Program-made: the position numbers and the translations under genes
Assembly (NCBI GenBank): GCA_011774835.1
Contig: JAACAK010000083.1
Span: 104,263-158,800, forward strand
Source: Candidatus Kutchimonas denitrificans
Lineage (GTDB): Bacteria; Gemmatimonadota; Gemmatimonadetes; Palauibacterales; KS3-K002
Direction: 5' to 3'
Length of the DNA stretch: 54,538 nt
The notes under the pieces: generated by a model
Seen by the model: the letters and a program-made list of their open reading frames with translations, nothing else
Databases searched by the model: none
Told to the model about the DNA's origin: nothing
Part shown: one piece after another, positions 11,075 to 39,514 of the stretch
How positions within the stretch are numbered: the stretch's first letter is position 1
Layout of the letters: every line of letters begins with the position of its first letter

Positions 11075-12358
11075 ATGCGAGCGATACGTGGCGCGATCTG
11101 CGCGCCCGCAAACAGCCGAGAGGCGATTTACCGGGCGACCCAGCACCTGCTGGGCGCGATGGCGGAGCGGAACGGCCTGACGACCGACGAGATCGTGGCG
11201 GCGTTCTTCACCATGACGCCAGACCTGGATGCCGAGTTTCCCGCCTATGCCGCGCGAGACATGGGGTGGACGGATGTCGCCATGCTGGGCGCTCAGGAAA
11301 CCCTCGTGCCCGGCGGCCTCCCGCGCACGATTCGTGTGCTCCTGCTTGCCGTCGGTGCCGATCCGGCCCGACACGTCTATCTCGGTCAGGCGGCGCGCAT
11401 GCGCTCGGACCTGGTGGAGCCGGGCGATGCGGAGGCTTGGGATGGAGAAGCTCGGGTCGAGGCGACAGCGCGGAGCGAACGCATGGGCACGCTGCTCGTG
11501 GTCGGGCTGGGATTGATCGGCGGATCGCTGGCGGGTGCGGCCCGCCGGGCGGGCATCTTCGAGACCGTCCGCGGCCACGATCGTGATCGAGAAGCCCTGG
11601 CGATGGCTCGACGGCGTGGATTGATCGATGAGGGGAGCGACGATCTGCGCGACGCCGTCGCCGCGGCCGACATGCTGGTGCTGGCGACCCCGGTGGAAGC
11701 GATAGCGAAGACGCTCGAGGGCGTGGCCCGCGACCTGAAGCCCGCTGCGGTGGTCACCGACGTGGGCAGCACGAAGCGGGCGATCGTGGCGGCGATGGAC
11801 CGCCTGGGGCCCAGGGTCCGCGCCGTGGGCGGCCACCCGATGGCCGGAGACACGCGAACCGGCCCGGAAGCGGCACGACTCGATCTGTTTCAGGGGGCGC
11901 GCTGGGCGCTCATCCCGTTGCAAAGCGCCGACGTCGAGGCGAAGAAACGAGTGGAGCGCCTGGTGCGGGCGGTGGGCGCCGAGCCCCTGTGGACGACGGC
12001 AGAAAGCCACGACCGGGTGGTTGCCGGTACCAGCCATCTGCCGGCGGCCATGGCGGTGGCTCTGGTTCAGCAGGTCGCGGGGCTGAGCGAGCTCGGGCTC
12101 GAGCCCGCGGCCCTGGTCGGGCCTGGTTTCGTCGATGCCAGCCGCCTCGCCGCGGGCGACCCCGAGATGACGGCACAGATGCTGGCGACGAACGCGTCCG
12201 AGTTCCAGTCCTCGATCGACGGCTTGATCGAATCGCTACGGGAAATCGGGCAGCTGGCGACGACGGACCGCGGCGCGCTGGCGCGCCGGCTCGAAGAAGC
12301 CCGGACATCGCGCGCTTCGCTGGTTGGGAATTGGGGAAGTGGGAAATCGGGATTCTGA
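11075..12358 (+). CDS. AroH-type chorismate mutase fused to prephenate/arogenate dehydrogenase (TyrA)
   Basis: N-terminus MRAIRGA...TPDLDAEFPA...LPRTIRVL...HVYL (AroH); C-terminus GLGLIGGSLA, TDVGSTK, GGHPMAG, HDRVVAGTSHLP (TyrA). Confidence 0.9.
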   Translation: MRAIRGAICAPANSREAIYRATQHLLGAMAERNGLTTDEIVAAFFTMTPDLDAEFPAYAARDMGWTDVAMLGAQETLVPGGLPRTIRVLLLAVGADPARHVYLGQAARMRSDLVEPGDAEAWDGEARVEATARSERMGTLLVVGLGLIGGSLAGAARRAGIFETVRGHDRDREALAMARRRGLIDEGSDDLRDAVAAADMLVLATPVEAIAKTLEGVARDLKPAAVVTDVGSTKRAIVAAMDRLGPRVRAVGGHPMAGDTRTGPEAARLDLFQGARWALIPLQSADVEAKKRVERLVRAVGAEPLWTTAESHDRVVAGTSHLPAAMAVALVQQVAGLSELGLEPAALVGPGFVDASRLAAGDPEMTAQMLATNASEFQSSIDGLIESLREIGQLATTDRGALARRLEEARTSRASLVGNWGSGKSGF

Positions 12359-12589
12359 TCTTGGGAAGATCCAGTTCTCTCCGAATTGCTGAAGCGGAGT
12401 CGGTGATTCGGTGATTCGGGGATTCGGGGAGGTGGGAAGTGGTGTTGGCAACCCTGGTGGCCCAATACTTCGTCTGTCCCCGAATCGCCGAATCCCCGAA
12501 TCTTCTTCGACAATTCGGAGAGAACTCCGAACTTCCCGAAATCGGAGTCCCGACATCAGAATCCGAATTCAAGAACTCAAGATTCCCAC
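12322..12589. repeat. Long imperfect palindrome of GATTCGGG-type octamers; gene-less copy of the 37.5-kb element
   Basis: AGTTCTCTCCGAATTG (12373-12388) inverted at 12511-12526; arms closely match 37516-37610 and 38010-38102. Confidence 0.9.
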
Positions 12590-35114: not shown

Positions 35115-36587
35115 ATGCTGGAAGCGCGAAGCTGCATCGTCGTGGCGGTGGCCGCGACGGCCCTGGCCTCGGGGTGCCGATCGGCGCCGGGTTACACGGA
35201 CCGGGACGTGGACATCACCGAGGCCGACATGCGGGCCCGGATCGGCTTCCTGGCCGCTGATCAGCTGGAAGGCCGGGGCACCCCGAGCACCGGCCTCGAG
35301 CTGGCCGCCAGCTACATCCGGTCGGAGTTCGCACGCATGGGGCTGCAGGCGCCGCCCGGCGGCTACGTGCAGCGCTATCGGCTGGCGATGACCGAGATGG
35401 GTGCCGACTGGTCGCTGGCATTGAGCCGCGGGAACCGACGGGCGCTGCTGGCGCTGGGGACCGATTACTGGGGGCTCCCCTGGGCGGCCGGAACGGTGGA
35501 AGGCGATCTCCGCTTCGTCGACGCAGTCGGACGTCCGGGGATGCGGGAGACGGGGGAGCCCACGATCTGGGTGGCGCGGCTGAGCGCCGCCGTGCTCCCC
35601 CGGGAGTGGCTGGCCGAAGCAGCGGATGCCGGAGCCGCGGGCCTCCTGCTCGTGCTGACGGCGGAGACCGAGGCCCTGATGAGCCACTGGCTCGAGGTAG
35701 GGGAGACGCTGTACGAGCTGGGCGATGTCGAGCCGAGCCTGCCTGCCGCGCTGGTGACCGAGAGCGCGCTGGCAGCGGCCCTCGAGCGATTGGGCCTGGA
35801 GGCGACGACGACGGCGGGAGCGCCGGCCGGATCCGGCGTCCGGGCCCGACTCGCCGCCGATTTGCGGGCCGAGACGCTGGCGGCGCCGAACGTGATGGGG
35901 ATCGTCCGGGGCAGCGATCCGGAGCTGGCCGAGGAGTTCGTGCTGCTGAGCGCTCACATGGACGGTCTGGGCGTGGGACCGCCGGTGGACGGCGATTCGA
36001 TATACAACGGGGCCGACGACAACGCGTCGGGCACATCGGCGCTGCTGGAGGTCGCCGAAGCGGTCGCCGCGCTCGAGCGCCGCCCGAAGCGCTCGATCTT
36101 CTTCCTGGCGGTGAGCGGCGAGGAACGCGGACTGCTGGGCTCGTCGTGGTTCGTGGAGCATCCGCCGATCCGTCTCGACCGGGTGATCGCCAACATCAAC
36201 ATCGACATGGTGGGTCGTAACTGGGAGGACACGATCGCGGTGATCGGCAAGCCGTATTCGACCCTGGGCGCCATCGTGGACAGCGTGGCGGCGGCGCACC
36301 CCGAACTGTCGATGACACCGGTGGGTGACCGGTGGCCGCAGGAGAACTTCTTCTTCCGATCCGATCACTTCAACTTCGCGCGCGAGGGCATCCCCGCCGT
36401 CTTCTTCTTCAACGGCGTGCACGAGGACTACCACATGCCGTCGGACGAAGCCGACAAGATCAAGAACGGCAAGGCGGCGCGGGTGTCACGGCTCATCTTC
36501 GAGGTCGCGGTCGCGCTGGCGAACGCCGAGCAGCCGCCCGGTTGGGACGACGCGGCCCGGGCGCGAATCGTCGAGGACGGCCGTTGA
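35115..36587 (+). CDS. M28 family peptidase, lipoprotein
   Basis: Lipobox ASGC; SAHMD, NGADDNASG, GEERGLLGS, NIDMVGR, RSDH, YH. Confidence 0.9.
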   Translation: MLEARSCIVVAVAATALASGCRSAPGYTDRDVDITEADMRARIGFLAADQLEGRGTPSTGLELAASYIRSEFARMGLQAPPGGYVQRYRLAMTEMGADWSLALSRGNRRALLALGTDYWGLPWAAGTVEGDLRFVDAVGRPGMRETGEPTIWVARLSAAVLPREWLAEAADAGAAGLLLVLTAETEALMSHWLEVGETLYELGDVEPSLPAALVTESALAAALERLGLEATTTAGAPAGSGVRARLAADLRAETLAAPNVMGIVRGSDPELAEEFVLLSAHMDGLGVGPPVDGDSIYNGADDNASGTSALLEVAEAVAALERRPKRSIFFLAVSGEERGLLGSSWFVEHPPIRLDRVIANINIDMVGRNWEDTIAVIGKPYSTLGAIVDSVAAAHPELSMTPVGDRWPQENFFFRSDHFNFAREGIPAVFFFNGVHEDYHMPSDEADKIKNGKAARVSRLIFEVAVALANAEQPPGWDDAARARIVEDGR

Positions 36588-37474
36588 TCCGGTTCGGGAC
36601 GGCCGGCTGGAGCTACGACGACTGGCAGGGGGTCGTATACCCGAGGTCGCGTCCCCGCGGCTTCGATCCGCTGGCGTATCTGGCACGCTACTTCAACACT
36701 GTCGAGGTCAACTCCACCTTCTACCGGCCGCCGCGACCCGAGGTCCCGGCGCGCTGGGTGAAGCGGGTGGCCGACAACGACGATTTCAAGTTCACGGCCA
36801 AGCTGTGGCAGCGCTTCACGCACCAGCGCGACGAGGCCTGGACCCGTGACGAAGCGGAGGCTGTCCGCGCCGGCCTCGACCCCCTGGCCGAACGCGATCG
36901 GCTGGGCGCGGTGTTGGTGCAGTTCCCCTGGTCCTTCAAGGCGCGTGACGACTCCTTCGAGTGGCTGGACGATGTGACCTCCGAGTTCTCCGGCTACCCG
37001 CTCGTCGTCGAGGTTCGGCACTCGTCCTGGAACACGCCCGAGTTCCACCGCTGGCTGAACGAGCGCGGGATCGGTTTCGTCAACATCGATCAGCCGCAGT
37101 TCAATCGGTCGATCGGTCCCACGGCCGAAACGAGCGGCCGGGTCGGCTACGTGCGGCTGCACGGGCGCAACTACGAGGACTGGTTTCGCGAAGACGCCGG
37201 GCGCGAGGCCCGCTACGACTATCTCTATTCCAGCGACGAGCTGGAGCTGTGGGTGGAACGGATCAAGGAACTCGGGAAAGACGGATCGGTGGAGGATGTC
37301 TACGTGGTCACCAATAACCACTACCGGGGCCAGGCGGCGGCGAACGCGATCATGCTGAGCGCGATGTTGCGTGGCGGGGCGCAGCCGGCGCCGGCGCCGC
37401 TAGTGGAGGCTTATTCCGAGGCGCTGCGGCCGTTTGTCGTGCCGGAAGAAGGGCCGCAGCGCCGCCTGCTTTAG
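36584..37474 (+). CDS. DUF72 domain protein
   Basis: TTG start overlapping the upstream TGA; FGTAGWSY, VEVNSTFY, QFPWSF, YVRLHGRN, RYDYLYS, NNH. Confidence 0.92.
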   Translation: MIRFGTAGWSYDDWQGVVYPRSRPRGFDPLAYLARYFNTVEVNSTFYRPPRPEVPARWVKRVADNDDFKFTAKLWQRFTHQRDEAWTRDEAEAVRAGLDPLAERDRLGAVLVQFPWSFKARDDSFEWLDDVTSEFSGYPLVVEVRHSSWNTPEFHRWLNERGIGFVNIDQPQFNRSIGPTAETSGRVGYVRLHGRNYEDWFREDAGREARYDYLYSSDELELWVERIKELGKDGSVEDVYVVTNNHYRGQAAANAIMLSAMLRGGAQPAPAPLVEAYSEALRPFVVPEEGPQRRLL

Positions 37475-38130
37475 GGTGGGAATGGTTGAATCTTGAATTA
37501 TGATTTCGGGATTCTGAGGTCGGGATTCTGATTTGGGGAAGTTCGAGTTCTCTCCGAATTGTGGAAGCGGATTCGGGGATTCGGGGATTCGGGGGTTCGG
37601 GGAGATAGGCAAGTGGCGGCTACTTCTTGGTGGGCTTCTGGTCGTTCTTGCGGGCGGTGGCGATGCTGACGACGAAGATGGCGGTCAGTTCGTCGGCTTC
37701 TTGGATCGTCTGGTCGAGTTTCTCTCTCGGTCCCATGCCGAGCTCCCTCAGGTACTTGAGCCAGACCAGGGTCTCGCGGAGCTCTTTCAGGCAGATCTTG
37801 AGTTTGTGGATGAAATCCCGGCGGGACTCGCTGGTGCAGGCCTCGGCGTAATTGGGCGCCGGGGCCATTCCACAGCGCATGAGCTGACTCGAGATATGGG
37901 TTCCGACCCGGCTGGAGGGGAGACCGCCGGCGATCTTCGACGCCGCCGCCCCCAGCCGCACCAGCCGATCCTCCAGATCCCACGCCCGCTGCTTGCCCAC
38001 ACTCATCCCCCAACTGCCCGAACCCCCGAATCACCGAATCCCCGAATCAGGTTCGGCAATTCGGAGAGAACTCGAACTTCCCCAAATCAGAATCCCGACC
38101 TCTGAATCAAGATTGAACGATTTCCATCAA
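37475..38130. mobile_element. Inverted-repeat-bounded cassette carrying a four-helix-bundle gene (mobility inferred, not shown)
   Basis: Perfect 46-bp IR at 37516-37561 / 38057-38102 extended inward by GATTCGGG octamers; gene-less sister at 12322-12589. Confidence 0.6.
37620..38006 (-). CDS. Four helix bundle protein (23S rRNA IVP / TIGR02436-type, Avd-like fold)
   Basis: DLEDRL...SQLMRCG..PAPNYAEA..SESRRDFIHKLKICLKELRETLVWL...EADELTAIF. Confidence 0.92.
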   Translation of the reverse strand: MSVGKQRAWDLEDRLVRLGAAASKIAGGLPSSRVGTHISSQLMRCGMAPAPNYAEACTSESRRDFIHKLKICLKELRETLVWLKYLRELGMGPREKLDQTIQEADELTAIFVVSIATARKNDQKPTKK

Positions 38131-38142
38131 CAAACCCTCAAC

Positions 38143-38176
38143 AAAGAAAAGGGGCCCGACGAACTCGCCGGGCCCC
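38143..38176 (-). terminator. Intrinsic terminator of the upstream outer-membrane protein gene
   Basis: Minus strand GGGGCCCG-loop-CGGGCCCC followed by TTTTCTTT. Confidence 0.8.
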
Positions 38177-38200: not shown

Positions 38201-39514
38201 TCAGTAGCCTGTCCCCGGCCAGACGCTCAGCGACAGGGCCAGCGCGACCCCGTCGCCGGCTCCGATTCCCCAGCGGCCCGCCGCGAAGTCGAGGTGCACC
38301 GGGCCGGCGTAGAGACCGAAGCCGCCGGTGACCGCCAGGCTGTTGAAGTCGGTGGCCAGGCCGGCACGCAACGGCACGACGGAGAGCAGGCGCAGCTCGG
38401 CACCGGCCGACAGCTGCCGCTCCCAACGCGCGTTCAGCGAGCCGCCCAGCAGCTCCAGATAGTCGGCCGACAGGCTGAGCATCGAGCCCATTCGCCAGGC
38501 CGCGCCGAGCCGCAGCTTCTTCGGGACGTCGGCGCCCTGCAGGTACTCGGACACGCGTTCCTGGTCGGCCAGTGTCAGCTCGCTGAACGCCAGTGTCGTG
38601 TCGGTGGACGTGGCACTGTCGAAGTCGGCGTGCGCGGTGTAGCGCTTGAGCTCGAACGCCTCTTCGTCCCACTGTATGTTGGAGAAGGCGTCGATGACCG
38701 AGATGCCCGCCACCAGCGAGCCCCACTCCATCGCCGCGCCCAGGTCGGCGGCCCACACGCTCCCGGCATTGAACTCGGTCGAGTTCAGCACCTCGGCGTC
38801 CACATCCAGGACGAGCGGATCATAGGTCAGTGCCGTGCCCTGATCCGCCGCTCGGTACAATCCGTGGGCCACGCCGTACTTCACCGTGGCCCCGATCGAG
38901 AACTTCATGTCCAGATAATCGAGGGCCGGAATCGTGAACGGCTGGGCGTATGACACGTAGACACTGCTCAGCCCCCAGCCGTCGCCGTGGGAACCGTCCA
39001 GAGTGAAGTCGCGGCCCGTGCCGTCCTCGCCCATATTCCCGAACAGGATCAGCTCCGCCGCGTCCGGTGAGACCGCCAGCGCCGTCGATCCGGTGGCACC
39101 GACGCCGAAGGCGAACCGCCAGATGCTGAACGCCATGCCCGTCGCGCCCAGGTCGGCGCTCAGCTCGAGCATCCCGTCACCGTCCACGCCACGGATCTCC
39201 GCCAGCAGCTCGGACTTGGTCGCGTCATCCAGATACTCTCCGTAGAGATCCTCGATCTGACCGTAGCTCAGCGAGTTGTTGTCCAGGTAGGCGTTGGCGC
39301 CCGCCAGCCCGATCGACCAGCCGGGCCGGTCGGACAGCCCGAGGTTGGCCGGATTCCAGAACGGCGATTCGTAGCCGCGGGCGCGGCCGACGTAGGAGTC
39401 GGCGAGGCCGGCGCTGCGGGCGCTCGGTGCCGCCATCTGCGCCCCCGCCACGCCCGGCGAGCAGGCGAGGAGCGCGAGAACGATGGTCGTGACCTTGAAG
39501 TCCGTGTTGCTCAT
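38201..39514 (-). CDS. Exported probable outer-membrane beta-barrel (FadL/TraF/DUF5723-like)
   Basis: Signal peptide; SARSAGLA...FWNPANLG; amphipathic beta strands (LPLRAG-like, GGFGLY) in the C-terminal half. Confidence 0.65.
   Translation of the reverse strand: MSNTDFKVTTIVLALLACSPGVAGAQMAAPSARSAGLADSYVGRARGYESPFWNPANLGLSDRPGWSIGLAGANAYLDNNSLSYGQIEDLYGEYLDDATKSELLAEIRGVDGDGMLELSADLGATGMAFSIWRFAFGVGATGSTALAVSPDAAELILFGNMGEDGTGRDFTLDGSHGDGWGLSSVYVSYAQPFTIPALDYLDMKFSIGATVKYGVAHGLYRAADQGTALTYDPLVLDVDAEVLNSTEFNAGSVWAADLGAAMEWGSLVAGISVIDAFSNIQWDEEAFELKRYTAHADFDSATSTDTTLAFSELTLADQERVSEYLQGADVPKKLRLGAAWRMGSMLSLSADYLELLGGSLNARWERQLSAGAELRLLSVVPLRAGLATDFNSLAVTGGFGLYAGPVHLDFAAGRWGIGAGDGVALALSLSVWPGTGY

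Follow-up and report, generated by a model that had tools for sequence, protein, structure and literature searches.

The window analysed here is a stretch of 54,538 nucleotides from Candidatus Kutchimonas denitrificans, a member of the Gemmatimonadota (contig JAACAK010000083.1, positions 104,263 to 158,800). At 37620-38006, on its minus strand, it carries a gene for a 128-residue four-helix-bundle protein of subfamily B of TIGR02436/PF05635, the protein family known from the intervening sequences (IVSs) of 23S rRNA. The gene lies between two long inverted-repeat arms, and these arms are one copy of a palindromic repeat family that is spread through the whole genome. A repeat search places them at 37510-37609 and 38009-38108; each is 100 nt long, they are 91% complementary with 9 mismatches, and 399 nt lie between them. 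Read directly, they contain a perfect 46-bp core in which 37516-37561 (plus strand) pairs with 38057-38102 (minus strand; also recovered by the repeat search). A preliminary description of the locus, made from the sequence alone, had given the same gene and the same core, and its coordinates were reproduced. The inner ends of the arms are runs of GATTCGGG-type octamers, which continue the inverted repeat inward as that description had noted: three to four direct GGATTCGG units occupy 37569-37600 (plus strand), with a mirror copy at 38016-38048. Chance would give 0.01 matches to this octamer pattern in the window; there are 10, a number that none of 100 shuffles reaches.

When both arms are aligned outward, the inverted similarity ends at TGGGAAT-type sequences, which gives 37477-38129 (minus strand) for the whole inserted element, from just past the stop codon of a DUF72 gene (37472-37474) to just short of the terminator of an outer-membrane protein (OMP) gene. 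A profile of the arm family, applied with nhmmer, recovers the arm 3′ of the gene at 37490-37613 (plus strand; C123:141752-141875 in contig numbering, 118.7 bits) as a copy of the dispersed family, and the 5′ arm at 38006-38125 (minus strand; C123:142268-142387, 108.1 bits). The 3′ arm is G-rich on the plus strand and C-rich on the mRNA strand. The 5′ arm is G-rich on the mRNA strand, and its inner end carries a G-run and the ATG of the open reading frame (ORF). At 37569-37602, and in the family generally, the G-rich arm has at least four GGGG runs at 4-nt spacing; GGGG runs with short spacing are the textbook G-quadruplex pattern.

Minus-strand RNA from 37480-38135 is predicted to fold into one long stem with the ORF as its loop, at -342 kcal/mol against -241.5 ± 8.8 kcal/mol for 20 shuffles (z = -11.5), in keeping with the earlier suggestion of an IVS-like transcript. 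The start codon of the ORF lies at the base of this predicted stem, which is paired. If the fold holds, a transcript running over both arms would form an approximately 100-bp stem with the start codon hidden in it and, by analogy with rRNA IVSs, could be a substrate for RNase III. Since the genome is a metagenome-assembled genome (MAG; 3.76 Mb in 149 contigs, 86.6% complete; G000 below), chance similarity or an assembly artefact may be considered. The z value of the fold and the excess of octamers both speak against this, as does the presence of the same gene-in-hairpin layout in isolate genomes and in records whose titles call them chromosomes, and we give such an explanation next to no weight.

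The protein belongs where the preliminary description had put it, in the IVS protein family and with a fold like that of Avd. Against TIGR02436, its ORF reaches 73.2 bits, where the cut-off is 24, and against PF05635 it reaches 50 bits, where the cut-off is 33.8. An AF2 model of the protein, with a pLDDT of 90.9, matches in Foldseek the S23p structure 2rld (TMt 0.86), 2gsc (Xcc0516; 0.83) and Avd (4dwl; 0.80), and the ribonucleoprotein of a diversity-generating retroelement (DGR), 8ub7, is also among the matches. In sequence it is closer to S23p than to Avd, with a profile match to 2rld at E = 1.6e-14. As modelled, it has the four-helix-bundle fold of the solved TIGR02436/PF05635 members. It is basic, with a pI of 9.6, and the pI exceeds 8 in 25 of 31 relatives. 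The PDB entries 2rld and 2gsc contain five chains each, and by analogy the window protein is probably pentameric. A role in defence or in phage biology was dropped, as the protein has no match in PADLOC and PHROGs. Among the related genes, those of loci L001, L053 and L058 have one in-frame stop each, always TGA; in two of the three, relatives have Arg or Lys at that place, which suggests decay of CGA to TGA, although read-through of the stops may also be at work.

The arms are by no means private to this locus. Within the genome, 61 matches came from a search with the 140-nt arm, 87 high-scoring segment pairs from blastn of the arm and 86 matches from the nhmmer arm profile. There are 22 inverted pairs in which both arms score at least 70 bits: the window locus and 21 gene-less hairpins of about 215-250 bp, each with a unique loop of 17-37 nt. 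About 18 more arms of the same family stand alone. Of the 22 pairs, only that of the window contains a gene, and its arms are among the top-scoring copies. By the family model, the arm spacing at the window locus is 385 nt, and the ORF is 387 nt long; the gene thus takes the exact place of the loop, with a fit within 2 nt. One of the gene-less hairpins lies in the window itself, at 12322-12586, 25 kb from the gene-bearing copy; its arms, 12322-12441 and 12464-12586 (C123:116584-116703, plus, and C123:116726-116848, minus), enclose a unique 22-nt loop. The preliminary description missed this genome-wide family and took the element for a self-contained unit, a claim that does not stand. Because the arms are a copy of a dispersed family, the element is better read not as a private cassette but as the gene-bearing copy in a family akin to REPINs (hairpins formed by doublets of repetitive extragenic palindromic sequences, REPs) or to miniature inverted-repeat transposable elements (MITEs).

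Some of the lone arms deserve mention on their own account. A truncated one lies about 590-690 nt ahead of the start of the window (G000:C123:103580-103676). Three G-rich ones (G000:C18:87938-88054, C133:17444-17524 and C119:4589-4705) end in a GGAGG-like sequence a few bases before an apparent gene start, and at the first of these an ATG follows 2 nt past the end of the arm. Arms of this kind could act as ribosome-binding sites or 5′ leaders.

The window gene is one of six TIGR02436 genes in the genome, all of which lie between inverted arms, each with a different family of short units. In gene orientation, a short-unit arm stands upstream and its reverse complement downstream, and every paralog arm type recurs at 10-32 other places in the genome. 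Local palindromic regions with a span of 80-420 nt number 70, and 56 of them cluster with the flanks of the six genes, in clusters of 24, 23, 5, 3 and 1. These clusters offer a source for most long palindromic repeats in the genome. A self-comparison of the genome yielded seven inverted-repeat pairs at 200-1500 nt spacing. Three pairs fit tightly around a four-helix-bundle gene, and a fourth takes in a second ORF as well as such a gene; the remaining three hold a putative GGDEF-type ORF (between arms only 74% alike), an ORF read as a putative aminotransferase and an ORF-less stretch of 240 nt. At the ORF-less pair (L152, 283-611; G000:C112:21482-21810), arms of TTAGTGCG units, the C1 paralog's family, surround 240 nt without an ORF of at least 60 aa. 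Neither Rfam (E ≤ 0.01) nor a tblastn search for remnants of the gene gave a match there, and the stretch may represent other cargo or a decayed element.

At the window locus, the element of about 650 bp has the DUF72 stop codon on one side and, on the other, the terminator that DUF72 and the convergent OMP gene share. The DUF72 ortholog was located in eight relatives. In four of them (G005, G006, G007 and G010), nothing but a terminator or 25-70 nt of spacer separates the DUF72 stop from the end of the OMP gene; in a fifth, of the same genus (G001), the spacer contains other short repeats and a terminator, without a four-helix-bundle gene. Of the others, the G002 contig stops 117 nt past the DUF72 stop, and synteny is broken in G004 and G009. 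Since the site is empty in five of the five readable relatives, the element is an insertion; it is polymorphic for presence and absence, and syntenic fixation of gene and arms at this locus fails as a description. The protein's closest relatives, L060 in G001 and L057 in G002, are each on a different contig from the DUF72 locus of the same genome. In these two genomes, both of the same genus as G000, short repeats of other families occur at the equivalent intergenic site downstream of DUF72 (L064 and L065), and the spot beside the shared terminator may be an insertion hot spot.

The preliminary description had found no rRNA nearby, and it was right: no part of the window reaches the threshold of any Rfam family, those of rRNA included, and the Pfam-matching ORFs within about 8 kb are all housekeeping genes (Mfd, BatA, DUF58, M28 peptidase, DUF72, DUF5723 OMP, GT9, ROK and PfkB). 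It had also reported a terminator that divides the cassette from the upstream gene. The terminator scan places this intrinsic terminator, with its T tail, on the minus strand at 38151-38176, after the OMP gene, whose stop is at 38201. We regard it as context, outside the insertion, because the empty sites have terminators too. Immediately 5′ of the upstream arm are two TTGTTGA motifs (38127-38144, minus strand), a possible promoter or outer end of the element. This motif class, defined post hoc, is found in sense orientation upstream in 17 of 31 related loci and downstream in one of 31. A scan of the locus for sigma-70 promoters gave no canonical match. On the other side, the listed DUF72 ORF, of 380 aa, shares about 250 nt with the M28 peptidase ORF (36332-36620), and its Pfam match begins at residue 103; the true DUF72 start is probably near 36620.

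The arrangement is not peculiar to this organism. We scored each bracket by aligning the upstream flank locally with the reverse-complemented downstream flank and taking the best score. For related loci we took 32 of 44 matches, that is, those with locus sequence plus two loci of the same genome, and dropped one with a short flank; 22 of the remaining 31 exceed the 99th percentile, and 27 the 95th percentile, of 850 mismatched flank pairs. For subfamily B, one genome per species gave 80 loci, from phyla that include Gemmatimonadota, Verrucomicrobiota, Planctomycetota, Rhodothermota, Bacteroidota, Ignavibacteriota and Acidobacteriota, of which 75 were kept after five with short flanks or N were dropped. 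Against 281 shifted controls from the same loci, 63 of the 75 lie above the 99th percentile and 69 above the 95th; with mismatched flanks as controls, 22 and 55 loci do so, because the arms of different loci share motifs. For subfamily A, 80 metagenome loci were taken and seven dropped, and 69 of the 73 left exceed the 99th percentile of 166 shifted controls. Inverted repeats are thus strongly enriched beside the genes of this family, a point on which the preliminary description stands.

All three protein subfamilies are bracketed, by arms that differ in sequence. Among loci that score at least 38, the median gaps between the two arms and the core of the HMM match are 58 and 47 nt for the related loci, 57 and 41 nt for those from many phyla and 72 and 73.5 nt for those from metagenomes; in most loci, the arms abut the start and stop codons. 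The subfamily-A flanks are often tandem heptamers, with strong periodicity at lag 7 or 14 in 27 of 73 loci against five of 1000 random windows of G000. In the metagenome loci L153-L232, inverted arrays of GTGATCA- or GTAATCA-type heptamers flank the subfamily-A genes; arrays of this kind resemble the short tandemly repeated repetitive sequences of cyanobacteria. No Rfam match was found in 20 gene-bearing loci from several phyla. The gene-in-hairpin layout is the normal habitat of the TIGR02436/PF05635 family, and these elements are, therefore, free-standing equivalents of the ORF-bearing IVSs of 23S rRNA. A literature search, from which most subscription journals were out of reach, returned no description of inverted-repeat flanks or dispersed hairpin families around free-standing TIGR02436/PF05635 genes. 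A large clustering study names “23S rRNA IVP” among proteins linked to CRISPR arrays (PMC10910872). Upstream of G000:C121:10828 are units with a period of 25 nt, and one may speculate that array finders picked up repeat-rich flanks of this sort as CRISPR arrays.

Arm families and gene-bearing copies occur together. The window arm has 51 matches in G000, 31 in G002 and 16 in G015, the three genomes that have a subfamily-B gene in window-type arms, and 0-2 in each of 23 other genomes. Contrasts within genera point the same way, for G015 against G005 and for G000 and G002 against G001. The L058 arm matches at 61 places in its own genome, G010, many of them in plus/minus pairs, and at 4, 0, 0 and 0 places in four other genomes; that of L060 has 11 matches in G001 and none in four others. 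The pattern is the same in cultured isolates of other phyla, where the isolate's own arms have 24 matches in Prosthecobacter fluviatilis and 38, with plus/minus pairs, in Stieleria mannarensis. When crude arm classes are mapped on a tree of 92 subfamily-B rows, 21 changes suffice; shuffled labels need 33.1 on average, and none of 200 shuffles is as low. In this comparison labels are shared among kin, duplicates occur among the rows, and 58 of 93 classified rows fall in a residual class. One arm class forms a clade with 100/99 support. Protein clade and arm type are paired non-randomly.

How do these elements compare with known systems? The closest in protein are the ORF-bearing IVSs of 23S rRNA, as in Leptospira and Coxiella (S23p), which belong to the same family, PF05635/TIGR02436. 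They share with the window element the terminal inverted repeats that form a long stem around the ORF and a sporadic, insertion-like distribution. In PMC4990558, rRNA IVSs are described as having terminal inverted repeats, as being excised by RNase III, and as carrying an ORF with a proposed role in mobility. The differences are that an IVS lies in a helix of 23S rRNA (9, 25 or 45), whereas the window element lies between DUF72 and OMP; that the IVS stem is 28 bp long and the window arms are about 100 nt; and that the window arms are members of a dispersed family with gene-less copies.

In layout, the closest parallel is the REPIN-RAYT system, whose gene, RAYT, is a REP-associated tyrosine transposase. 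As described in PMC3116915, it consists of dispersed inverted doublets with a spacer, lone remnants and a gene flanked by cognate repeats, and several families and paralogs coexist in one genome. G000 likewise has inverted doublets that form hairpins (the 21 gene-less pairs), about 18 lone arms, and genes flanked by their own repeat families (six genes, each with a distinct family). However, RAYT is an HUH/Y1 transposase, whereas the window protein is a four-helix bundle of 128 aa and PF01797 was not found in G000; REPs are 20-40 nt long and the window arms about 120 nt, made of units of 7-8 nt; and the RAYT gene is vertically fixed and single-copy, while the gene-bearing unit of the window is an insertion polymorphism.

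DGRs offer the third comparison. In these elements Avd is an adaptor that binds both the reverse transcriptase and RNA, and the window protein resembles it in fold (4dwl, TMt 0.80), small size and basic charge. Unlike a DGR, the window locus has no adjacent reverse transcriptase and no pair of template and variable repeats. Genome-wide, neither the reverse transcriptase family RVT_1 (PF00078) nor the Y1 transposase family (PF01797) has a match in G000, at 86.6% completeness, which bears out and extends the earlier remark that neither kind of enzyme is nearby. The Correia/NEMIS and ERIC repeats are palindromic, MITE-like sequences that are transcribed into hairpins. Like the window family, they are intergenic and imperfectly palindromic, present in dozens of copies and decaying neutrally; to our knowledge, none carries a small protein gene of its own within a loop. 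The window family has the terminal inverted repeats and small size of a MITE. No autonomous relative that encodes a transposase was found in genome-wide searches, which covered the Y1 and reverse transcriptase families, and the sole gene-bearing copy encodes a four-helix bundle. An integron cassette was rejected on anatomy, as the arms lie on both sides of the gene and none of the neighbouring ORFs with a Pfam match is integrase-like.

The window locus is thus a gene-bearing member of a dispersed, genome-specific palindrome family that inserted at this site. We propose to read it as a free-standing IVS-like element with the layout of REPIN-RAYT systems, whose Avd-like protein recognises the cognate arms. 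We consider this reading moderately probable. The protein would recognise the arms as RNA, as single-stranded DNA or as hairpin DNA. It might then act as a specificity or adaptor factor through which host enzymes spread or maintain the arms, much as Avd does for the reverse transcriptase of a DGR.

A number of results weigh against this proposal, and they bear on its rivals as well. Among the mismatches of the arms, sense-strand G:U pairs are not in excess (32 against 38 in 22 loci, and 74 against 91 in 55 loci), nor are compensated changes in the 22 hairpins (93 against 88 ± 8 expected), and an arm is as close to the partners of other copies (71.0% identity) as to its own (71.5%). With neither a G:U strand bias nor a compensatory excess, nothing points to selection on the stem at the RNA level, a reading that was set aside. 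Taken together, the results make the copies look like neutrally decaying insertions of a palindromic consensus rather than individually maintained structures. The same two absences tell against an explanation by expression control, in which the arms would form a long 5′-3′ stem that regulates or stabilises the mRNA, with the start codon occluded and the RNA processed by RNase III, and the dispersed copies would be decayed by-products unrelated to the protein. That explanation would suit the strong predicted stem over the start region and the position of the arms against the start and stop codons in most loci. It leaves unexplained the dozens of gene-less hairpins per genome and their genome-specific co-occurrence with the gene, and we judge it quite improbable.

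The loops present a further difficulty for the proposal that the protein serves its arms. Compared with the gene, the gene-less loops have a mean score of 13.5, against 14.1 for shuffles; compared with one another they score 9.8, against 9.0 for shuffles, each loop being unique. A tblastn search of G000 for remnants of the gene gave nothing with E below 0.007 beyond the six genes. The gene-less copies are thus not simple internal-deletion derivatives of a gene-bearing copy, an origin refuted by their unique, gene-unlike loops and the lack of remnants. That the loops are private mini-hairpins was also rejected (mean z = -0.12, with z < -1.64 in only two of 21 loops), and the unique loops fit none of the explanations tried. 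To this must be added that no target-site duplication is definable, the outer ends being fuzzy and no direct repeat being visible by eye in the 22 pairs. No partner enzyme was identified in the genome-wide family searches, which were for Y1 and reverse transcriptase only, and we know of no catalytic activity for a four-helix bundle. In-frame TGA codons interrupt three of the genes, including that of L058 in G010, which has the best arms and 61 dispersed copies. Of the palindromic regions of G000, 14 of 70 have no link to any four-helix-bundle gene. The co-occurrence counts come from a few related genomes, and they and the arm-class tree, with the reservations given above, must be read in this light.

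Several of these results favour the main rival, namely that an unrelated mechanism spreads the palindromes, that small cassettes with four-helix-bundle genes preferentially land or survive in their loops, and that the function of the protein is unconnected to the arms. Unique loops without gene remnants mean that hairpins may exist independently of the genes; the 14 unlinked regions and the stops in three genes despite large families agree with this, as does the location of rRNA IVSs at helix tips, as given in PMC4990558. Such capture does not readily account for arm classes that follow protein clades, for arm families that are abundant only in genomes with a gene in those arms, or for the finding that, among the seven pairs at 200-1500 nt, only four-helix-bundle ORFs are tightly bracketed. 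Nor does it account for brackets of differing sequence across all three protein subfamilies and for an ORF that fits the loop to within 2 nt. We regard it as rather unlikely.

A wider view of the family may also be considered, which we put forward as tentative and open to considerable doubt. The IVS-protein family would be the sequence-specific subunit of widespread hairpin elements that are free of transposase and dependent on host enzymes, with each paralog propagating or maintaining its own palindromes. The IVSs of rRNA would be such elements that landed in rRNA helices, and Avd a relative recruited as an adaptor.

The function of the IVS ORF and of the “four helix bundle protein” has been a question since the early 1990s. 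The bracketing arms, the gene-less families and the pairing of clade with arm type provide three handles on it, so that the old proposal that the ORF serves the mobility of its element can be put to a direct test in cultured carriers, among them Prosthecobacter fluviatilis (KACC 12649), Stieleria mannarensis (JC639) and Allorhodopirellula solitaria (CA85). The presence of the layout across many bacterial phyla hints at a kind of mobile element for which we found no description in the literature. It suggests a REPIN-like system built not on a transposase but on an Avd-like protein.

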